Shown here: positions 1 through 14,243 of the stretch, in pieces
Layout: each line of letters opens with the position of its first letter
Numbering within the stretch: the first letter of the stretch is position 1
From: an uncultured Gemmatimonadales bacterium
GTDB taxonomy: Bacteria > Gemmatimonadota > Gemmatimonadetes > Longimicrobiales > Gaopeijiaceae
Assembly (NCBI GenBank): GCA_963809895.1
Contig: CAWELD010000003.1
Coordinates: forward strand, 1-64,000
Reading direction: 5' to 3'
Length of the DNA stretch: 64,000 bases
Position numbers and translations under genes: made by a program
Notes under the pieces: model-generated
Database searches by the model: none
Seen by the model: only the letters and a program-made list of their open reading frames with translations
Told to the model about the DNA's origin: nothing

Positions 1-1091
1 GGGAGAGCTTCCGCCGCACCGCGGAGACGGCCGGCGCGGCACGGGAGGAGACCCTTGCCGCCGCCCGGCTCTCCGTCGCCCTGGGCACGGTCAACGGGCT
101 CACCCGTACAGCCGGAAACCTGCTCCTGACCTACATCGGGTGGCGGATGATCCTCGGAGGCGGCCTCACGCTGGGGAGCTTCATCGCCTTCACGGCTTAT
201 CTCGGCCGGGTGCGGGGACCGCTGGCGAGCATCAGTTCGCTCTTCAGCGACTTTCAGCGTACGGCCATTACGCTGGACAGGGTGTTCGAGCTTCTCGATG
301 AGCCACCCGAGGCGGAGCCCACGCTCCTCTATGATCCGGCGTACGCGCCCGCGCCGGTCCAGTTCGACGGTTCCATCCGGGTGGAGAACCTGCGCTTCCA
401 GTATCGGAGCGATGGCTTCGCCGTGGAGATTCCCGACCTGGACTTTTCGCCGGGATCGGTGACCGCCCTGGTCGGAGAGAGCGGCTCGGGAAAGTCCACA
501 CTCCTGCGGCTGCTCGCGGGCCTCGAGTGCCCGACCAGCGGCGCGATCCGGTATGGACGCCATGCTCATGACACCCTCCCACTGCCGTCGATTCGCCGGA
601 CGGTGGCGGTGGCATGGCAGGACGCGGACCTGCTTCGGGGCTCGCTGAGAAGCAACATCGCCTACGGCGTCGATCAGGTCAGCGAGCAGCGCCTGCGAGA
701 CGTCATTCGGGTGTGCCAGCTCGACACGTTGGTGGACGATCTCCCGGATGGACTCGACACGCCGGTGGCGGAGTGGGGCGCGACGCTCTCGGGTGGCCAG
801 CAGCAGCGGCTGTCGCTCGCTCGGGCTCTCATTCGAGAGACCCCGGTGCTCCTGCTCGACGAGATCACCTCGAACCTCGACAGCGACACGGAAGCGGCGC
901 TCTTGGATGACCTGATGCCCTTCGTCCGCGGGACGACCGTGATCGTCGCCACCCATCGGGGTGCGCTGCTCCGCCACGTCGACCGCGTGGTGAAGATCGC
1001 GAGTGGTCGGCTGGCGTTGGTGGAGGACGGCGATCGTGCCGTGCTCCGAGCGGGCCCCCCGGATGCCCTCTCGTCGGCGGTGGGATCGTGA
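1..1091 (+). CDS. ABC exporter, fused TMD+NBD (5' end outside window); likely peptide exporter
   Basis: Frame open from position 3; TM segment (GGLTLGSFIAFTAYL), Walker A GESGSGKS, signature LSGGQ, Walker B LLLDE, H-loop ATHR; stop overlaps next start (GTGA). Confidence 0.93.
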   Translation, partial: ESFRRTAETAGAAREETLAAARLSVALGTVNGLTRTAGNLLLTYIGWRMILGGGLTLGSFIAFTAYLGRVRGPLASISSLFSDFQRTAITLDRVFELLDEPPEAEPTLLYDPAYAPAPVQFDGSIRVENLRFQYRSDGFAVEIPDLDFSPGSVTALVGESGSGKSTLLRLLAGLECPTSGAIRYGRHAHDTLPLPSIRRTVAVAWQDADLLRGSLRSNIAYGVDQVSEQRLRDVIRVCQLDTLVDDLPDGLDTPVAEWGATLSGGQQQRLSLARALIRETPVLLLDEITSNLDSDTEAALLDDLMPFVRGTTVIVATHRGALLRHVDRVVKIASGRLALVEDGDRAVLRAGPPDALSSAVGS

Positions 1092-1894
1092 TCGGCCCGC
1101 TGACCCCCACGGGCCGGCGGCTCGTCGCTGAGGGGGACCGCCGGGAGGTCCGTCTGCCGGAGCTCGGCCGGGAGCCGGGCCGTGGCCTGCCGCTGCCGAG
1201 GTCTCTGCTCCTGGGTGCGTTGATCCTTCTGGCTATCACACTCGTCGCGGCGGCCATGATCCTGCCAAGGGCGATGGTCCCAATGCGGGCATCCGGGACA
1301 GGATGGGTGGAGCCCGCGCGAACCGCGGTCATCCGGGCTCCTGAGGCCAGTGTCGTGACGCAGGTGTTGGTGGCAGCCGGAGCGACAGTGTCCGTGGGAC
1401 AGCCGTTGGTGCGCTTGGAGGTGTCGCCGAACGCCGAGGATCGGCGTGAGGTCGTCCTTCGGGCGCCCAGTTCCGGGGTGGTCCAGGCGAGCGATCCGAG
1501 GGCGCTGGCAGCTCTAGCCGGTCGTTCTCTCATGCGTGACGAGTTGATCATTCAGCTCGTGGATCCGTCGGTCTGGGAGGTCCACTTCTTCGTGCCTGCG
1601 CTGGCCGTTCGACAGATCGGGCTCGGTGATACGGTCCGCGTGGAGATCGAGGCTCTCCAGGGCCTCGTCGACGATGCCCTGCGCGCCGAGGTGACCGGGG
1701 TGGGGACCCGGCCGTCGGCCGCTCCTGAACGCGAGGGCCTCTTCGAGGTGGTGGCCGCCCTCGATCTATCGTCTGACCCGCAAGTTGGGCAGGTGCTGCG
1801 AACAGGCTTCGATGCGCAGGTGGAGCTGGTGACCGGACGTATCTCCCTCGCCGGTCAACTCAGGCGGTGGGTACATCAGAGGTTCGGTCCATGA
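1088..1894 (+). CDS. HlyD/membrane-fusion-type adaptor lacking the coiled-coil hairpin
   Basis: Single N-terminal TM, lipoyl half motifs VIRAPEASVV..V..G..V..GQPLVRL and VLRAPSSGVV, C-terminal LRTGFDAQVELVTG; coupled to the ABC gene. Confidence 0.8.
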   Translation: MIGPLTPTGRRLVAEGDRREVRLPELGREPGRGLPLPRSLLLGALILLAITLVAAAMILPRAMVPMRASGTGWVEPARTAVIRAPEASVVTQVLVAAGATVSVGQPLVRLEVSPNAEDRREVVLRAPSSGVVQASDPRALAALAGRSLMRDELIIQLVDPSVWEVHFFVPALAVRQIGLGDTVRVEIEALQGLVDDALRAEVTGVGTRPSAAPEREGLFEVVAALDLSSDPQVGQVLRTGFDAQVELVTGRISLAGQLRRWVHQRFGP

Positions 1895-2640
1895 CGCGAG
1901 AGGAGCTGCGCGACCGGCTGCGGGCTGCCGCAGGACACGGCGTACGCGTGGCCGTGGTCGACAGCGGGTGGGAGGGCGGGATCGTGGACCCTCGCGTGGC
2001 CCCGGTCGTGGAACCGGGATCGCCAAGTCACCGAACGGGGGGAGATGAGAATGGCCATGGCACCGCCTGCGCGCTGCGCGTGCTGCAGGTCGCGCCGGCA
2101 GCCTCCATCGTGCCTGTGCGCGTGTTCCAACGGGTGCTGGAGACCTCCGTGTCGCGGCTGTGCGAGGGCATTGTCGCAGCCCGCGATTGCGGCGTGCAGA
2201 TCATCAACCTGAGCCTCGCGACACACCGGTCCGACGCCATTCGACCGCTCTACCGCGTCTGTGAGGAGACGCGGCGCATGGGTATCGTGATCGTGGCGTC
2301 CGCCCACAACCGAGGCGGACGCGCCGTGCCGGCCTACCTGGAGCCCGTCCTCTCGGTCGAGTCCGGCCCGCAGACCGAGTTCCTGGATTTCACGTACGAG
2401 CCGGAGGCCGCCATCGAATGCACCGCCGCCGCGCATGGTGTTCCGACTACGGGTCCAGACGGGCAGGCGGTGCGAAGGTCTGGTACCAGCATCGCAGCCG
2501 CCACCCTTTCGGGGATCGTGGCCCGTCTGCTGGAGATCGAACCCGGCGGTCTCGACCACGTGCGTCGGCTGCTGGCACTGACCTCCAGTTCCAACCCGGG
2601 AGACCTGGCTGCCGCTCGCGACATGGGGGGTGCGCCGTGA
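1891..2640 (+). CDS. Small S8 (subtilisin-like) serine peptidase, no signal or propeptide; candidate leader peptidase
   Basis: Catalytic motifs VAVVDSG, NGHGTACA, INLSL, ASAHN, SGTSIAA; ATGA overlap with upstream gene. Confidence 0.9.
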   Translation: MTREELRDRLRAAAGHGVRVAVVDSGWEGGIVDPRVAPVVEPGSPSHRTGGDENGHGTACALRVLQVAPAASIVPVRVFQRVLETSVSRLCEGIVAARDCGVQIINLSLATHRSDAIRPLYRVCEETRRMGIVIVASAHNRGGRAVPAYLEPVLSVESGPQTEFLDFTYEPEAAIECTAAAHGVPTTGPDGQAVRRSGTSIAAATLSGIVARLLEIEPGGLDHVRRLLALTSSSNPGDLAAARDMGGAP

Positions 2641-3875
2641 GCATGGCCGAACTGAGGCGGCCGTTGCTCTTGCTGCTATGCGGGAGCCTTTTCGGCTGTG
2701 ACGCATCCGCCCCTGCCGACAGTGATTCCAGCAGGGGCTACGCGGACTGGACAGCGACAGAGGAACTCCGCCTTGGCTCCCTGGACGACTCCGTGTACAG
2801 CTTCGCACCGATCGGGGCCGTCGCCGTGGGACCAGACCGGACCATGTACACGGCGCATCCCCAGGAGCGGCTCATCCGACGATGGTCCGTGGACGGAGCA
2901 CCAGACGGCACGATCGGTGGCAGGGGCCAGGGCCCCGGCGAGTTTGCGAGTATCGGCGCCATCGGCTTCACCGGCGACAGCCTCTGGGCCATGGATCTCC
3001 AGGGCCAGCGCGTCACGTACTTCGATCTCACCGGCACCGTGCTCGGGACCACGCCTCTGGAGATCGACACGCGCGCCCAACTTCAGGACCTCAATGCGGG
3101 ACGCCCCTACCCCCTGAGTGTCCTACCGGACGGCACGTTCTACGGCAGGCAGGCCGGGCTCATCCCGCAGATCGCCGGCACGGACTCCACGCGGATCCTG
3201 CATCTCCACCTCGACGCGACCTCGGCCATCCTGGACACGCTCTTCGTTCAGGTGGTGCACCGACGGGACGCCCTGGCGGTGCAGTCCCCCACGAGCGGTG
3301 GGTGGCTCATGGGCGCGCAGCCCTACGCGGACGCACCTGTCGCGTCGGCGGAGCCGTCGCTGCAGGCCCTGCTCGTCGCCGAGCGGCCGAGCTACACCGG
3401 CAACGGGACGCCCACGTTCCGGGTCACGCGCATCTCCATGTCCGGCGACACCGTGTTCCACCGGACGCTGCCGTACGACGCCGAGGCCCTGCCCGCCGAG
3501 ATCGTCGACCGTGTCATCGCGGGGATGGTGAACCGATGGGAGGCTCAAGAATCGGACGGTGAGCCTGCGTCGGCAGCGGCACTGACCCGATTGGCGAGGG
3601 ACGCCCTGTATGCGCCGGCCTGGTATCCCCCCTTCTCGGCGGTGGTGCTCGGGCGCGACGGCACCATCTGGCTCCGGGGCGCCCACGCCACCGGCGGACG
3701 CATCATCTGGACCGTTCTGGACGCGGAGGGCCATCCGGCTGGCCGAGTAGACCTGCCGGCGAGCCTCCGGGTCCTTGTCGCCACGCGCGACCGCGTGTGG
3801 GGCGTGCAGTCTGACCGGCTGGGTGTGTCCTACCTGTCTCGGTTCAGCGTTGGACCCGAGGCCACCGACCCATAG
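2637..3875 (+). CDS. 6-bladed beta-propeller lipoprotein
   Basis: Lipobox-like LLLLCGSLFGC; IGGRGQGPGEF motif; C-terminal DGTIW..WTVLD..G..GRV.LP; GTGA overlap with S8 gene. Confidence 0.8.
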   Translation: MSMAELRRPLLLLLCGSLFGCDASAPADSDSSRGYADWTATEELRLGSLDDSVYSFAPIGAVAVGPDRTMYTAHPQERLIRRWSVDGAPDGTIGGRGQGPGEFASIGAIGFTGDSLWAMDLQGQRVTYFDLTGTVLGTTPLEIDTRAQLQDLNAGRPYPLSVLPDGTFYGRQAGLIPQIAGTDSTRILHLHLDATSAILDTLFVQVVHRRDALAVQSPTSGGWLMGAQPYADAPVASAEPSLQALLVAERPSYTGNGTPTFRVTRISMSGDTVFHRTLPYDAEALPAEIVDRVIAGMVNRWEAQESDGEPASAAALTRLARDALYAPAWYPPFSAVVLGRDGTIWLRGAHATGGRIIWTVLDAEGHPAGRVDLPASLRVLVATRDRVWGVQSDRLGVSYLSRFSVGPEATDP

Positions 3876-3919: not shown

Positions 3920-5171
3920 TTGGACCGTCCCATCGAGATCCGGCACGACGGGCACACGCGCCAGGTGCCGCGCGACAAGGTGTACTTCTCCTTTGGCGAC
4001 GGTCGGCTGAGCTACGATTGCCGGAACTGCCAGATGAATTGCTGCCGCCGGGGCTTCGGCTACTGGCTCAACACGGAAGAAGAGCGTCTTGTCCAACTCG
4101 AGCAGCGGCCGCACGCTCGGTTCTTCACCGAGCCGGGACCTCTGCCAGGCTACGAGAAGATGCACAATCAGCCACCGGCGTGTTTCTTCCTGACCGACGA
4201 CGGGCTCTGCGGCATCCATGTCAAACACGGTGCTACCGCAAAGCCTCTGACGTGCAGCTTGTTCCCCTTCAACCGCTTTCTGCTGGCGGACGATCACCTG
4301 ATCGTTGGGCCCAAGGCTGGACTCTGTCCATTGGAGATCATGCCGTCGGACGAGCGGAGTGCACTCTCCAAGCACGACGAGATCTTCGCCGTGATGGCCG
4401 AGCGGGGACTGGACCGCAGGGTCGTGGAGGGCAGGGGATTGCTCCCTGACGTGGGGCCTCTCGTCGACCTGGAGCGCCGGATTGTTCTGCTATCAGAGGA
4501 GTTTCTGGTTTCCGACACGCCGCTGCTGGACTTCATCGATCAACAGATTGCCATGGGCCGGACGGTGCAGGAGGCCGCCACCACTGGCCACGACGCGGGA
4601 GCCCGTCCTCGCCGCACGCGACCTTCTGCGGCATGCCGCCGAGGTCCTCGGTGTCGATCGGAAGGACGTCGAGAGCTTTGACCCCGATGTCCGGCGGGCC
4701 GTCGTGGCGCTGACACCGGCGGTCCGCTCAGCGCTCGTCTTCTACGCTCTGGCAGGCCCGAAGGCCTGGCAGGGAGGCCTGATCTCGCTGGACCGCGTTC
4801 CAGGCGCCATTCTGGCCGTAGCTGTTCTCGGCCAACTGGCGAAGCTGGCCGGCATGTCCTCGGTCACGGTGCAGACGCTCTGGTCTTTCTTCAAGGAATA
4901 CCGAGCTCTGGTCTGGGCCATTGCGCACCTGGACAGTATTCCCGCGTGGAAGCTCGATCTTGCCGAAGACCCTGTCTTCGTAAGGACGCAGCGCGCCACC
5001 GAGGGCGGATTCGGTGACGTCGCCACGACGATCCTCCCATCCCGCCAGCAGCGCAATCCCACGACCCTCCTCGAGGCGCTCCGCTCTGCCGGTCGGTCGG
5101 CCAGCCACGACCAACGGACCAGGCTGGCCAAGCTGGCGAGCAAGCGCATGTATGGGAAGGTGACCGTGTGA
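3920..5171 (+). CDS. YkgJ/FliB-like cysteine-cluster (CxxCxxxCC) protein, split by one +1 frameshift near 4572-4585
   Basis: CRNCQMNCC and CFFLTDDGLCGIH..KPLTCSLFPF motifs; GGAGG RBS before TTG; ORFs 3920-4681 and 4482-5171 join into one ~415-aa frame by removing one base. Confidence 0.78.
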
Positions 5172-5696
5172 ACGCCCGTGGAGCCAATCGGACCATCAGC
5201 CCTGCCTTGAGGTCAGGCGGGTCGGCGATGATTTGCGGTTTCCGCTCAGTCCCAATCCTGTCGACATCTCTCGTGCAACAGCGAGGAGTGCAAGACCGAG
5301 TGATGTCTCATCTGGATCCCTTCGACCTCTGTCCGGCATCCGTGCTGCAGGAGGTTTCAGAGGGGATGCCCCTGCATTGGGTTGTGATACCATGGCCGGG
5401 GTCGCAGGCAATGGTGCGGGAGACTCGGGCTAGAGGGTCACAGTGGTCGAGCCCTCGGCCTACCTGGGACGGAGGGGCCCGGTCTTGTTGATCACTCTAT
5501 TTGCTGCCGTTGTCGGCCTGCCCCCTGCGCTCCCAGCCCCTGATACGCTGGGTGCCGTTCTGAGAGTGAAGGAGGTGAGGGGCTTCGTGCTTCGACGTTG
5601 CTACCAGTTGCTACCAGCGGCTCCCGTGCCGCTCGCGCAACGCTGCGGATCGCACTCCGTTAGGGTTCGCGGTCACTCCCAAGGGTCTAGGCGCGC

Positions 5697-6480: not shown

Positions 6481-6798
6481 ATGAAGAAGATCCGCTTGGA
6501 CTTGGAGTCGCTGAAGGTCGAGTCCTTTGTTACGAATCGTCCCTCTGGCGCTAGGGAAGGCACCGTCTATGGGATGGGGGCGAATACGTATTGTGACTGG
6601 ACCTGCAACGAAGTAACCCCAAGCTGTAACGGGGATCCGGGATGCATCTCCGATGTCGACGACACCTGCGACTGGACCTACCCCCAGGCTACTACGTGTA
6701 CGTCTCCATATGGGACCACGACGGGGGGCGAGACGGAGGACTGGACTTGCGAGCCTTGCGCTGCTTCATGCAATAGCGAGGGTTGTAAGACGGATTGA
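6481..6798 (+). CDS. RiPP precursor peptide (105 aa): pinensin-family-like leader plus Cys/Thr/Asp-rich core
   Basis: Leader MKKIRLDLESLKVESF...EGTVYG; 74-aa core with 10 Cys, 19 Ser/Thr, 13 Asp/Glu; purine-rich RBS (GGGAGAAACGAGG) directly upstream. Confidence 0.88.
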   Translation: MKKIRLDLESLKVESFVTNRPSGAREGTVYGMGANTYCDWTCNEVTPSCNGDPGCISDVDDTCDWTYPQATTCTSPYGTTTGGETEDWTCEPCAASCNSEGCKTD

Positions 6799-6941: not shown

Positions 6942-8705
6942 GTGCTGGTTTCGAACTTGTTGACGCTTCTTGCGGCGTTAGGGAGCCAGCACGCCGTGAC
7001 GACGGATACGTTGGGTTCAGTTCGCCGGGTGAGCGAGGCGCTTAACGACTACTATTACGAGACCGTGGTGGATCCGCCGGGTAAACGGCATCTCCTGACC
7101 TCTCGTGACGCGGCGGGGGCGAGGCTCGGATGGATCTGCAGCCCCGACACTGGGGTTGGCTCGTGTACGGGGGGGGATTGGGTGCGGGGGAAGTGCCCAG
7201 CCGATGTCCGCTGTCATCCGCCGAATGATGAGCTCCTCGATGTTCTGGCGAGGTCCGCTGCGGAGAGTCCTGGGTCGGGGTTTGTCACCGGACAGGCCGT
7301 CTTCGCCTTTGCTCGATTTGGGCAACACTTGAAGGCCATGGGCGTTGCCGAGAGCTGCGAGGCGGCCGCCTGGTGGTGTGACGCGCTTAGGGGCCATGTC
7401 TACCGAGCCGTTGAGCGGGTCCAGGACGCAGAGGCGAGCTTCCGGCGCTCATTGTCGGTGGCTCCTGACTCCATCATCTGCCGCTTCAGCGATGCGACGT
7501 GGCTATTCGGATCGTGGTCTTCCCGGGCGCACCCCGTCGATCCGCCGGAGGCGTGGACGGAGTGGTCCGAGCAGCCGTGTGCGGTCCGGGCAGCGGTGTC
7601 CGACACGATCTGGTGGCTGGCTGACCCGCTGTACGTCGTGGAAGGCAATGATCGATGGGAGGAGCAGGTCGACCGAAGTCTGGCGGCCCGGTGGCGTCTC
7701 GAAGCCTCCATTGACGTCACGCTTCGGCCGGAGGTGCCGCTGCCTTGGCGAAACACGTATTGGGCGCGAGTGATTCGTCGAGGGCCTTGGGACTCGTTCG
7801 AGTACCTCAAAGTGGCGAGGGCCAACGGCATTTCCGCCCTCCTCTGGACCAGCAAGAAGGCCGCCCGCTACCACTTCGTGCCGGACTTCGAAGGCGAGGG
7901 CTTCTCGCACCCGACCTGGCGCCTCGAAGCCGACTTCGACGACGAGGGCTACACGCCGCCCTATGCGGCGTTCTACGCCCTCCCGATCCAGATCGCCCGC
8001 TTCCGCAAGCCCGACTCCACGGAGGACGCCTCCGCGTCTGGCACCATGCGCGTGGCCACCGCGAGCAGCGCTCTGGGCACGCCCATCGAAGCTGCGGTGG
8101 ACTCCGCCCACCTCATTCTCACCGACGCACCCGGCAGCTTCCCCCTGCACCTGGAGGCGCCTTTCCACGAGGGTAAGACGGTCTACTTGGCCGAGACCCC
8201 GCCGAAGCGGTACGTGACGAGCCTCGAGGTACTGACCCCGGCCGGCATCGGCTGGCACCGGGAGATGCTGGAGCCCATGGAGCTGAATGGCCCGGGGCTC
8301 TCGGACATCCTGCTCTACGAGCCGCTGGGCTTCGCCACGCCCGACTCATTGCTCGCGGCGACCTCGATGATGCTGGGCACGACAGAGCTCGAAGACGTGC
8401 CGGAAGTGGGGCTCTACTGGGAGGTGTACGGCGCGGAGGCGCAGCAGCCGCTGCAGTTCCAGCTCCGGCTGGAGCGAGAGGGCGGTGGCTTCCTGGACAA
8501 GCTGCAACGGCTGCTGCCGGGGGGTCCAGAGGAAGCAACAGGTACGGTGATATGGAACGAGACGGCGACGGGTCCGGTATCGGCGAACTCCATCGTGCTG
8601 GACCTCAGGACGCTCGATTCTGGGAGCTACACGCTGGTGCTGCGGGCCCGGTGGGAGGGGCAGGATGCGCCGGTGGAGAGCCGGCGTAGACTCCTGATCC
8701 GGTAG
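6942..8705 (+). CDS. Secreted hypothetical protein with Cys-rich/TPR-like N-half and Ig-like C-terminus
   Basis: 587-aa ORF with signal-like N-terminus; motifs WWCDALRGHV, WWLADPLY, GLSDILL, GLYWEVYG, LDSGSYTLVL. Confidence 0.7.
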   Translation: MLVSNLLTLLAALGSQHAVTTDTLGSVRRVSEALNDYYYETVVDPPGKRHLLTSRDAAGARLGWICSPDTGVGSCTGGDWVRGKCPADVRCHPPNDELLDVLARSAAESPGSGFVTGQAVFAFARFGQHLKAMGVAESCEAAAWWCDALRGHVYRAVERVQDAEASFRRSLSVAPDSIICRFSDATWLFGSWSSRAHPVDPPEAWTEWSEQPCAVRAAVSDTIWWLADPLYVVEGNDRWEEQVDRSLAARWRLEASIDVTLRPEVPLPWRNTYWARVIRRGPWDSFEYLKVARANGISALLWTSKKAARYHFVPDFEGEGFSHPTWRLEADFDDEGYTPPYAAFYALPIQIARFRKPDSTEDASASGTMRVATASSALGTPIEAAVDSAHLILTDAPGSFPLHLEAPFHEGKTVYLAETPPKRYVTSLEVLTPAGIGWHREMLEPMELNGPGLSDILLYEPLGFATPDSLLAATSMMLGTTELEDVPEVGLYWEVYGAEAQQPLQFQLRLEREGGGFLDKLQRLLPGGPEEATGTVIWNETATGPVSANSIVLDLRTLDSGSYTLVLRARWEGQDAPVESRRRLLIR

Positions 8706-11819: not shown

Positions 11820-12078
11820 GTGTCTCCCTGGGTCCCTGGGGACACCTCGTTCTTCCCGGAGCCCACGGTGATCGCCCCCACCTGGCCCGGCGTGCCGACG
11901 CCGGTCCCCCAAGCCGAGAGCGATGAGCCCGGGAGCTTCAAGCTCGGCGCAATCGTGGGTGGCGTGGTCGCGTACATCCTGCTGTCCCAGGACGCCGACG
12001 GAGTCGGCCGTCTTCCCCTTCGTACCGATCTGCGCCCTGATCGGCGGTGTCCTCTTCTGGACGATCGGGATCGGGTGA
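11820..12078 (+). pseudogene. Remnant of small membrane protein gene (5' end unclear, frameshift near 12000)
   Basis: Two hydrophobic helices FKLGAIVGGVVAYILL and, one frame over, AVFPFVPICALIGGVLFWTIGIG-stop. Confidence 0.35.
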
Positions 12079-12090
12079 CGTCCGCGGCGC

Positions 12091-13212
12091 TCACCCGCCC
12101 CGCTCGAGCGCGTACACCCGGACGTGGTCGACGTCGTACTCGTCTCGCCAGATTCCCAGAACACCCGTGGCAGCGACGTCGCTGGCGATGAACCCGGCGG
12201 GCATGCGGACCGTCGCGAGGTGGGCGCCCCCGGAATCGTAGACCTGCCAGGTGGCCGCCTCACGCGGATCGAGGGCATGCTCGCGGATCCACAGGTTGCC
12301 CTCGTCATCGACGAGCAGAGCCGACATGACCGGAAGGCGCTCCGGAAACTCCATGTCTCGATACCAGGCCCGCGAAGCCGCGGTCCCTGGGGCCAGGAAT
12401 CGCTCGATGACGCCGCTGTCGATCTTCCGACCGACGTGCCCATCCCCGATCACGCCCAGAGGCTCACCGCTCCGCGAGAAGGCGTGCACGAGGAAGCTGT
12501 CGGATCTGGCCGCGTAGATCCGGTCCGGCGCCGTCGCGATCAGGGTGGTAGCGCCCAGCGGTTGGGGGCCTAGATCGCCGCCCACCATGATGGCGTCGAT
12601 GGAGAAGCTTCCGATCACGACGCGTTCGCCGCTCGGTGAGGTGATCTCGAGCCGCACCTCCCGCGTTTGCGGACCCTCGACGGGAGGCATGGGGAGGCGC
12701 TCGCTCGAGAGGACGAACGTGCCGTCCACCGCGCATCGCAGGCGTCGGGGGCTCCAGATCCCGCCCGACGCGTCCGCAGCCCGTAATTCCCCCTGGGAGA
12801 ATTCCCGCTTCAGCTCTCCATCCAATCCGAACGCCGAGATCCGATCATGTCCGGAGTCCCACACCGTGACGCTCGTCGAGTCGCAGGCCATGGGTGCCGA
12901 CATTCCCAGGAACTCGCCGGGACCGTCGCCCGCTCTGCCCGCATTCATGATCCGGCGGCCCTCGGTATCGTAGACCGCAACCCGGTGGCTCAGGACGTCG
13001 CTCGCCATGACGAGTCCCCGGGGATGCCAGGCGACGCCCGCGATCCGGCCCCATTCCACGCCCTGCGCCGGTCCGATCTCGAGGGTGGGTCGGTCCGACA
13101 GGGTCCAGGTTGCCGGCCTCCCGGCCTGGAGAGCCCGTACCGCCCCGGGCATGCCCGCTGAGAGCAGCAGACACGTCAGTACGGCACTGGTGGATCGTCT
13201 GGAGCGCTTCAT
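12091..13212 (-). CDS. Secreted 6-bladed beta-propeller protein
   Basis: Signal peptide; AGRAGDGPGEF; LVDDEGNLW; RDEYDVDHVRVY C-terminus. Confidence 0.82.
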   Translation of the reverse strand: MKRSRRSTSAVLTCLLLSAGMPGAVRALQAGRPATWTLSDRPTLEIGPAQGVEWGRIAGVAWHPRGLVMASDVLSHRVAVYDTEGRRIMNAGRAGDGPGEFLGMSAPMACDSTSVTVWDSGHDRISAFGLDGELKREFSQGELRAADASGGIWSPRRLRCAVDGTFVLSSERLPMPPVEGPQTREVRLEITSPSGERVVIGSFSIDAIMVGGDLGPQPLGATTLIATAPDRIYAARSDSFLVHAFSRSGEPLGVIGDGHVGRKIDSGVIERFLAPGTAASRAWYRDMEFPERLPVMSALLVDDEGNLWIREHALDPREAATWQVYDSGGAHLATVRMPAGFIASDVAATGVLGIWRDEYDVDHVRVYALERGG

Positions 13213-14243
13213 CGTTCCTGGAGCCTACTACTGCCGCCGGGGCCCGTACTCAGGCGCACCTCGGTCCCGGCCACCCGGATGATCATGGTGCCTCCATCCT
13301 CGCTCACCGTCACCGTGGCGGGCGCTTCCGACCGGACGTTGACGCGGACGTCTCCGATGGAGCCGGTGTACCGGTCCGTGGCCGGTGCCAGGGTTTCGCG
13401 CGCCCCCACGTCGAGGGTCGTCTGGTACCGGCTCCCATTCCGGTCCAGCGTCAACGCAAGCGCCTGTCCGGGTGCTGCGGCTCCGAGCGCCTCGCCGGCC
13501 CTGCGGCTGGTGATGGCCGCCCCGGCCACCTCCAGCAGCACGTCTCCCGGGCGAATCCCCGCTGCATCGGCCGGGCCGGAGGGCGCGACGGAGTACACCA
13601 CCGGGGGCTCGATGGAATGCCACCGGGGGAACGGGTCTCCCGTCTCGCGTTCCCAGCCACATCGGCGACAGGCAAGGGCCAGCCCCAGGCGCCCCGGCGG
13701 GAGCAGATCAGGCAGAGTCGGCACGGGGCCCGGTGAGCCGCGACCACCTGCGGCGCTCACCGGGGGTGCGAGCGACCTGGCGCTGGGGGCTTGCACGGGC
13801 ACGGCGTAGGCTCCCATGGCGCGAGGGTCCTGGGGACAGATGAGAGCGGCGTGCAAGGCCACGGCGATGTCGCGCCCACCCCGTCGGACCGTGAGCTCGA
13901 CCTCCTCGTCCGGGGCCACCTCCGCGAGCCTGCGCGCACCGTCCTGGGTCGTGAGGCGTCGGCCGTCCACCGCCACGATGCTATCTCTGGGCTGGAGCTT
14001 TCCGGCGGCCGGCCCTCCAGCCTCCACGGAGAGGACGTGGATGGGAGACCGGAAACTCCACGGACGTTCCGGCCAGCGGGCCCTGCTGACCGTGCAGTCG
14101 CAGGAGATGGTAAAGCCGAGATGTCCCACGGGGTCCGTCGACCCAGGGCACGTCGCCTCCTGACCTGCTGCAGCGCCGGCGAGCCCGAGAAGCAGCATGC
14201 CCGTCGTAGCAGGCCAACCGTTCGTCCATCGCATTCTGTTCAT
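13209..14243 (-). CDS. Secreted tandem-PDZ domain protein
   Basis: Two PDZ signatures (VEAGGPAAGKLQPRDSIVAVDG; VAPSGPADAAGIRPGDVLLEVAG); signal peptide. Confidence 0.85.
   Translation of the reverse strand: MNRMRWTNGWPATTGMLLLGLAGAAAGQEATCPGSTDPVGHLGFTISCDCTVSRARWPERPWSFRSPIHVLSVEAGGPAAGKLQPRDSIVAVDGRRLTTQDGARRLAEVAPDEEVELTVRRGGRDIAVALHAALICPQDPRAMGAYAVPVQAPSARSLAPPVSAAGGRGSPGPVPTLPDLLPPGRLGLALACRRCGWERETGDPFPRWHSIEPPVVYSVAPSGPADAAGIRPGDVLLEVAGAAITSRRAGEALGAAAPGQALALTLDRNGSRYQTTLDVGARETLAPATDRYTGSIGDVRVNVRSEAPATVTVSEDGGTMIIRVAGTEVRLSTGPGGSSRLQER

Follow-up and report, generated by a model that had tools for sequence, protein, structure and literature searches.

A split Cys-cluster gene of the PF03692 superfamily in a Gemmatimonadales genome: a family that is a candidate component of peptide processing

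The DNA described here (the window) comprises the first 64,000 nucleotides of contig CAWELD010000003.1 in assembly GCA_963809895.1, from an uncultured Gemmatimonadales bacterium. Close to its start lies a gene for a protein with an N-terminal Cys-cluster domain and a predicted helical C-terminal domain, which is spread over two open reading frames (ORFs), 3920-4681 and 4482-5171. They are halves of a single gene that one +1 frame change has divided (Table 1). The family to which the gene belongs is uncharacterised, with proteins of about 420-480 aa; it is a candidate new peptide-processing component, and the window copy itself may be dead.

Table 1. Features of the window around the split gene, with the second propeller gene and the downstream precursor
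Feature	Position	Strand	Remarks
N-terminal part of split gene	3920..4600	+	frame 2; eight-Cys PF03692-like domain and start of helical region
Zone of +1 frame change	4597..4608	+	contains GGG run 4597-4599 and CCC run 4602-4604
Out-of-frame tail of N-terminal ORF	4601..4681	+	ends at TGA 4679-4681
C-terminal part of split gene	4608..5171	+	frame 0; helical domain, basic tail, stop TGA 5169-5171
ATP-binding cassette (ABC) exporter, cut by contig start	3..1091	+	full-length orthologue in L032 of 601 aa, no C39 peptidase domain
HlyD-like membrane-fusion/adaptor protein	1088..1894	+	PF13437, 40.4 bits; orthologue in L032
Small cytoplasmic S8 peptidase, best named match QhpE	1867..2640	+	PF00082; NF049966 111 bits against cut-off 165; L032 orthologue 120 bits
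6-bladed beta-propeller (DUF5128/NHL-like), lipoprotein-type N-terminus LLLLLCGSLFGC	2643..3875	+	directly upstream of split gene
Second beta-propeller paralogue	12091..13212	-	propeller profile match
105-aa precursor	6481..6798	+	leader MKKIRLDLESLKVESFVT..GTVYGMG, then acidic core with 12 Cys

The upstream ORF (plus strand, 253 aa, TTG start) contains, in order, the motifs CRNCQMNCC (of the form CxxCxxxCC, with its Cys codons in 4019-4045), ACFFL, GLCGIH, KPLTC, FPF and GLCP. Its eight Cys codons lie at 4019, 4028, 4040 and 4043, then at 4181 (ACFFL), 4208 (GLCGIH), 4253 (KPLTC) and 4325 (GLCP), so that the motif set listed in the preliminary description of this DNA (CxxCxxxCC, CFFL, CGIH, KPLTC and FPF) is present here in full. 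The downstream ORF is in the +1 frame relative to the upstream one (3920 mod 3 = 2; 4482 mod 3 = 0), and its sole start codon is a TTG at 4482, far upstream and inside nonsense sequence.

By BLASTP, residues 1-214 of the upstream product align with residues 1-214 of the closest relative, the 420-aa protein P0002 (59% identity, E 1e-93), and residues 48-229 of the downstream product align without gaps with residues 238-419 of the same protein (54% identity, E 3e-58). Similarly, a family profile of 83 relatives matches 3926-4600 (profile 3-227, E 1e-79) and then 4608-5180 (profile 229-416, E 4.5e-35); because the match stops at 4600 in frame 2 and restarts at 4608 in frame 0, there is a single +1 break at about 4600-4608. 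Past the break the old frame runs on for 26 further codons before its stop, and this tail shows no similarity to the relatives beyond about residue 221. A single +1 frameshift had been proposed near 4575: both comparisons bear out its existence, but place it some 25-30 nt further downstream. The unrecognised C-terminal region of about 290 aa that had been proposed with it is of the right length if its start is taken where the Cys domain ends (near residue 140 of about 417), and about 190 aa of it fall after the break. We considered a programmed frameshift or conserved recoding site and rejected it: in the relative L008 the shift occurs elsewhere, after ...LSD and about 20-30 codons earlier than the break in the window, and other relatives are single-frame.

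Full-length proteins with lengths of 420, 421 and 442 aa came up in a first database search with the N-terminal part, as did a 382-aa protein on a contig of 1.5 kb. At E<=0.001 an exhaustive profile search gave 1387 representatives, of which 234 also passed E<=1e-30; among the 150 representatives listed, most are single-frame proteins of 420-500 aa. In sequence comparison, the resemblance of the split gene to these single-frame relatives far exceeds what chance would give. In alignments of 57 and of 83 sequences the eight Cys are invariant, and all are intact in the window copy; a KP pair, FPF and, downstream, a single Ser, Glu, Gln, Arg and Gly are also invariant in the larger alignment.

PF03692 matches 82 of the 83 aligned relatives at E<=0.01, over residues 33-118 or thereabouts; P0002 scores 25.3 bits against a gathering cut-off of 23, and the family copies in seven of loci L001-L010 score 23.1-28.6 bits. 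The alignments thus indicate that the N-terminal domain of the split gene belongs to the PF03692 (CxxCxxCC/YkgJ) superfamily, by homology and not by its own score, and to this extent the earlier PF03692 assignment stands. No other Pfam family, and specifically no radical S-adenosylmethionine (SAM) domain, was found in the 83 relatives at E<=0.01, nor was a radical-SAM domain found in the window halves. The PF03692 domain family itself is already known: most of its proteins are short and single-domain, their function is largely unknown, and PF03692/YkgJ-type Cys-cluster proteins are present in 10 of 14 control genomes. The family described here shares the Pfam model with them but differs in that its CxxCxxxCC motif is one residue longer than CxxCxxCC and in an added helical domain of about 280 aa; beyond the motif, four further Cys are invariant.

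We collected 135 loci, 46 of which hold a full-length-type copy; dereplication at 90% identity left 42, of which 27 have at least 4 kb of flank. Of 401 genomes sampled from the phylum, 4 have a family member, the window genome among them; the five other sampled genomes of the genus have none. The window genome has one copy, the split one. In five of the 42 loci the gene is in two ORF pieces (the window, L008, L009, L038 and L107): L008 (1127-2486) carries the +1 shift mentioned above, at a site differing from the window's, and in L009 (4195-6629) the copy is without its N-terminal 105 or so residues and has the gene for a Mutator-family transposase just upstream of it. L008 and L009 are independent inactivations of relatives.

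The C-terminal part in the window shows no gap, stop or second lesion over 182 codons and is conserved like the N-terminal part (54% against 59% identity to P0002), and the event must therefore be very recent or an assembly error: either the only copy in this genome is freshly inactivated, or it is mis-assembled. If the frame change were an assembly or consensus error, the organism would have an intact, working gene, and we give this somewhat less than an even chance. It is consistent with the conservation of the C-terminal part, with the position of the break at short G and C runs and with the finding that each of the four genes upstream in the operon aligns in one unbroken match with its orthologue in L032, the contig of P0002. 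Set against it is the fact that four other dereplicated relatives are also in two pieces, L008 being shifted elsewhere and the truncated copy in L009 abutting a transposase, so that real decay is common in the family; the absence of the gene from the other sampled genomes of the genus argues in the same direction.

The nearest studied relative of the family is, as sequence and profile comparisons support, FliB, the flagellin lysine-N-methylase of Salmonella. The FliB equivalog model NF038110 gives weak matches to 60 of the 83 relatives (best E 9.3e-8; P0002 22.9 bits), and hhalign aligns the family with the window genome's own FliB-like protein at a probability of 72% (E 3.5e-5) over profile columns 36-211; the FliB kinship put forward in the preliminary description is borne out by both. 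In the ESM Atlas, beyond clusters with PF03692 only, the nearest named clusters are FliB_C and FliB-family ones (0.91-0.92) of similar length. By its score, which lies below the equivalog cut-off, the split gene would not itself be classed as a FliB. In the FliB study (PMC8598068), the [4Fe-4S] cluster of FliB is held by an N-terminal CX4CX3CC motif, is oxygen-sensitive and is needed for SAM-dependent methyl transfer; FliB, as described there, was also the only biochemically characterised PF03692/YkgJ-type member met in our full-text literature search.

Like FliB, the family has an N-terminal Cys motif ending in X3CC followed by more conserved Cys, a Cys domain ahead of a C-terminal region that is not Cys-based (about 330-420 aa overall), a predicted cytoplasmic location and a gene beside those for an exported product, and the profile similarity between the two is weak but repeated. 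The motifs differ, CX2CX3CC in the family against CX4CX3CC in FliB (as given in PMC8598068), and the likeness of the C-terminal domains is unproven, the hhalign match spanning the first 210 or so columns only. No flagellar Pfam family was found among the neighbouring window ORFs scanned, the neighbours being the ABC exporter, HlyD-like, S8 and propeller genes.

A separate and genuine FliB-like gene is present in the window genome (G000:C3:2226711-2228911; 94.5 bits against the cut-off of 85), and two homologues were found for its product. This product has no FliB_C match in the Pfam copy searched, which may not include FliB_C. The gene (L030 1474-2463) starts 4 nt before the stop of a propeller paralogue (L030 263-1477). 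An arrangement of FliB-like genes beside propellers as a general rule was rejected: FliB-like genes occur in just 2 of 251 sampled genomes, and the 3.6-kb locus of the second is without a propeller match. One reading frame in that second locus may be flagellin-like, as judged by eye.

The neighbourhoods of the relatives were compared with profiles for three kinds of neighbour, built from the first loci: the propeller, a DsbA-like protein and a 'Trx-like' protein, which is anchored in the membrane, about 215 aa long and without a Pfam match, and which owes its name solely to a CxxC motif. Within 6 kb of the gene, the propeller is found in 14 of the 42 loci, the DsbA-like protein in eight and the Trx-like protein in six, with at least one of the three in 18. 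Seven of the propeller-positive loci (L032, L035, L039, L042, L043, L062 and L068) lie outside the profile seeds, and none of the three profiles matched in nine same-phylum control loci (121.6 kb, selected for the leader peptide discussed below). The co-directional order of peptide(s), propeller, Trx-like or DsbA-like protein and family gene occurs in L004, L007, L026, L039 and L043.

A strict peptide filter, which required a signal peptide and a Cys-rich mature portion, returned 16 matches in 255,043 bp of flank (12 of the 42 loci) and 3 in 804,952 bp around 81 other loci, these controls being partial copies or shorter Myxococcota-type relatives, mostly from other phyla. Many cassette peptide cores are acidic. 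In L004 (3752-4586), L007 (6556-7876), L039 (416-931) and L043 (2615-3315) small secreted peptides with at least six Cys at conserved spacing stand as tandem paralogues, those within one locus having a common Cys framework and differing loops. Only L003, among the relatives, has a canonical cluster for a ribosomally synthesised and post-translationally modified peptide (RiPP), with a RamC-type lanthipeptide synthetase: two tandem Cys-rich lanthipeptide-type precursors (MARILNLQKLQEIG...) lie at 11825-13649 beside a RamC_N class III/IV-type synthetase, with an intact family gene immediately upstream of all three. The gene neighbourhood had been named as a check on a link with peptides. Its result is divided: intact relatives are, as these counts support, enriched beside genes for small Cys-rich exported peptides, but the relatives mostly lie outside canonical RiPP clusters.

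We propose that the family protein is a FliB-like cytoplasmic metalloenzyme that acts on an exported peptide before export, and put the probability of this at roughly 0.4. The proposal follows the example of FliB, a cytosolic Fe-S enzyme whose substrate is modified shortly before it is exported. The family protein should be cytoplasmic, as it has no signal peptide, and by analogy with FliB its Cys-cluster domain would probably bind [4Fe-4S], or else zinc. Its substrate would be the Cys-rich peptide, to which it would bind in the cytoplasm and which it would alter through methyl transfer or another Fe-S-dependent reaction; beyond the cytoplasm, the peptide would be handled by the propeller and the thiol-disulfide proteins. 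A typical cassette of the intact relatives consists of small Cys-rich peptides, one to three in number, that bear an export signal, followed by a propeller, a DsbA-like or CxxC-bearing membrane-anchored protein and, last, the family gene. The window carries a variant: in place of Sec export it has an ABC exporter without a peptidase domain, the HlyD-like adaptor and the QhpE-like S8 peptidase, and its peptide bears a pinensin-like cleavable leader.

Several results weigh against this proposal. The N-terminal part in the window has no match to PF03692 at E<=0.01 or at E<=10 and is unlisted in the scan of its own genome at E<=0.1, and it is because this score falls below all Pfam reporting thresholds that the copy is filed in the superfamily by homology; against NF038110 it reaches 19 bits (cut-off 85), over residues 80-116 only. 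The gene is evidently dispensable, since the window and a further four of the 42 loci have it in pieces. Among the 27 loci whose flanks reach 4 kb or more, nine are without any cassette part (L003, L005, L028, L054, L061, L071, L073, L109 and L126), although L003 among them has lanthipeptide precursors. The control for the peptide count is not taxonomically matched, and a looser peptide filter has a high background, with 57 matches in 805 kb. Most cassette peptides carry Sec-type signal peptides rather than leaders, and cytoplasmic tailoring is unusual for such peptides. Some propeller adjacency is expected by chance, since the propeller family has 45 matches in the window genome at E<=1e-5 (5.33 Mb), with dense groups at C3:3.26-3.36 Mb and C10:0.71-0.73 Mb. 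None of the fold matches described below backs a catalytic or peptide-binding role for the C-terminal domain.

The peptide gene of the window itself adds to these points. The precursor is encoded 1.3 kb downstream of the split gene and scores 22.2 bits against NF038180 (leader_pinensin, cut-off 24), through the segment LDLESLKVESF; it therefore resembles pinensin-type lanthipeptide precursors in this leader segment, with a score below the cut-off. Two homologues (73% and 62% identity) have a first 18 residues identical to those of the precursor, and nine other Longimicrobium/Longimicrobiaceae loci (L136-L144) combine the same leader, MKKIRLDL..VESF, with very different Cys-rich cores; the pattern across metagenome-assembled genomes (MAGs) of these groups is MKKIRLDL..L.VESF.T...GTV, and L136 has five peptide ORFs of this leader family within about 1.8 kb. 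None of these nine loci contains a family member or an S8 or propeller match, and their neighbours are unrelated housekeeping genes, so that the leader family is independent of the family of the split gene. In L032, no recognisable precursor was found within the 1.6 kb available after the gene. The usual maturases were considered for the leader family and rejected: a Pfam scan of 67 ORFs at the nine loci showed no known RiPP enzyme within 6.5 kb. The window ORFs scanned include no LanB, LanC, LanM or LanKC family; the cluster has lost its upstream end at the contig start.

Modification of the window precursor by the Cys-cluster protein, which the preliminary description had suggested, is not upheld: the gene is missing from all nine same-leader loci, L032 lacks a precursor in the sequence available and the window copy is broken. 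As the sole copy in the genome is split, the precursor is probably matured without the Cys-cluster protein, unless the split is an assembly error. A complex prediction with three chains (N-terminal part, C-terminal part and the 105-aa precursor) scored 0.00 in both runs against a mark of 0.32, and speaks neither for nor against binding. The precursor core starts ANTYCDWTC, which is like the CANTYCEPGWTKC start of the L039 peptides, a comparison made by eye only.

The predicted structure bears on an alternative role for the protein. AlphaFold2 with the family alignment models P0002 at a predicted local distance difference test score (pLDDT) of 91.5 and a predicted template-modelling score (pTM) of 0.92, and the window's own C-terminal part (4623-5168, 182 residues) at 93.0 and 0.88, respectively. 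The C-terminal domain is thus predicted to be mostly helical and confidently folded, and the models match no solved structure: Foldseek returned nothing at E<=0.001 for either; a second fold search against solved structures gave best Z scores of 4.6 (full model) and 3.8 (C-terminal part), where Z<5 is noise; and a profile search of PDB sequences gave a single chance-level match (E 0.8). A RiPP recognition element (RRE) of the PqqD type in the last 90 residues was considered and dropped. With the full model, RRE folds matched at the same Z as DNA-binding winged helices (TbiB1 4.2, MadB 4.0, NisB 3.2), and a search with the C-terminal part alone did not raise the RRE scores (ThcOx 3.2, TbiB1 2.7; best overall 3.8).

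The protein might instead be a redox- or metal-sensing regulator, in which the Cys cluster senses iron, oxygen or thiol status and a basic C-terminal module binds DNA and controls the cassette. This would fit the strongly basic last 100 residues (mean net charge +8.9, sd 3.5, n=83), weak fold matches of the last 90 residues to DNA-binding proteins (PafBC Z 3.9; sigma factors Z 3.2-3.9), the weak likeness of the middle helical part to FCD/GntR ligand domains (Z 3.0-3.4) and the position of the gene as the last in, or divergent from, the neighbouring operon. We nevertheless consider a regulator unlikely: all of these Z scores are below 5 and so within the noise of the tool, no helix-turn-helix family of Pfam or NCBIfam matches, the nearest characterised relative, FliB, is an enzyme, and a basic tail would suit membrane association or binding of an acidic peptide equally well.

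In the window the ABC exporter, HlyD-like, S8, propeller and split genes form an operon on one strand, with gaps or overlaps of 0-45 nt, and the order of these five genes is conserved in L032 (46-71% identity per tblastn match). The propeller start is most likely the ATG at 2643, just past the S8 stop, which gives the lipoprotein-like N-terminus; a long ORF at 2418-3875 overlaps the S8 gene. The window begins at the first base of a 3.68-Mb contig, which leaves the ABC gene some 240 codons short and cuts off whatever preceded the operon. A circular join was considered and rejected, as the last 18.8 kb of the contig end in a propeller ORF and not in the missing ABC start.

This arrangement raises the possibility that the substrate or partner of the Cys-cluster protein is the neighbouring 6-bladed propeller, modified or matured before export as flagellin is by FliB. 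The propeller gene is directly upstream in both the window and L032 and, as described, within 6 kb in a third of the loci (14/42); L032 and L062 have a propeller and no detected peptide; the genome's separate FliB-like gene overlaps another propeller paralogue by 4 nt; and L011, from a cyanobacterial MAG, has a distant PF03692 protein (matching profile columns 87-147 only) with three propeller matches in its 20-kb locus. A propeller substrate seems distinctly unlikely all the same, given that the genome holds 45 propeller matches and one family copy, so that nearly all propellers do without the Cys-cluster protein, that peptides occur with no propeller within reach in five loci (L003, L008, L040, L058 and L110), and that the other FliB-like gene in the 251 sampled genomes lacks a propeller-profile match in its locus.

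Alternatively, the gene could be an unrelated passenger of a mobile island, lying close to peptide genes through shared location and not through function. Its patchy distribution (4 of 401 genomes of the phylum, no other in the genus), the integrases, transposases or toxin-antitoxin genes near L003, L007, L009 and L032 and a third-position GC content lower than that of surrounding genes in several loci could all be explained in this way. However, the same gene order is found across contigs whose family proteins share only 30-40% identity, and it recurs with three kinds of peptide export signal, namely Sec-type signals, lanthipeptide-type leaders and pinensin-type leaders, and we regard a mere passenger as very doubtful.

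The window operon invites comparison with the maturation of quinohemoprotein amine dehydrogenase. The Qhp system comprises the QhpC peptide, the radical-SAM enzyme QhpD, the S8 protease QhpE, the ABC exporter QhpF and QhpB, which is a 7-bladed propeller. The window peptide is likewise rich in Cys, Asp/Glu and Trp with a cleavable leader, its small cytoplasmic S8 peptidase is closest to QhpE (111-120 bits, under the cut-off of 165), and an ABC exporter without a peptidase domain, a beta-propeller and a putative Fe-S-type protein complete the likeness. Differences are that the precursor matches no NCBIfam model except leader_pinensin, and hence no QhpC-type model, that the window propeller matches only the 6-bladed DUF5128 Pfam model, and that family scans of the first 16 kb of the window found no radical-SAM or heme protein. 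The resemblance is one of analogy and not of membership, its measured part being only the QhpE-like S8 score.

Taken furthest, the comparison would make the Cys-cluster protein a cytoplasmic Fe-S enzyme of an undescribed, recurrent peptide-making system (peptide, 6-bladed propeller, thiol-disulfide protein and enzyme), which would install, ahead of export, either a crosslink or a modification of FliB-like or radical type. We hold this larger claim to be improbable as it stands; were it true, the protein would be a functional parallel to QhpD in QhpC maturation, with a PF03692 domain in place of radical-SAM, and would provide the first biochemical role outside flagellin methylation for a large branch of the YkgJ/PF03692 superfamily. 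Our full-text literature searches met no paper tying the Cys-cluster family or the cassette to peptide maturation, and within those searches the two-domain branch, its unrecognised C-terminal fold and the peptide-propeller-thioredoxin cassette appear undescribed. For this branch, whose proteins are about 450 aa long, the neighbourhoods suggest small Cys-rich peptides that are exported as a concrete and testable class of substrate. If the link with peptides is true, the family would be a new component of peptide maturation and an entry to many uncharacterised cassettes in soil Gemmatimonadota and Acidobacteriota.

Directly after the precursor, the window contains an ORF of 587 aa (6942-8705) with no Pfam or NCBIfam match. 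Its counterpart at the end of L032 is confined to a C-terminal stretch of 40 residues (65% identity), near which an ORF for a RelB/DinJ-like antitoxin is inserted.

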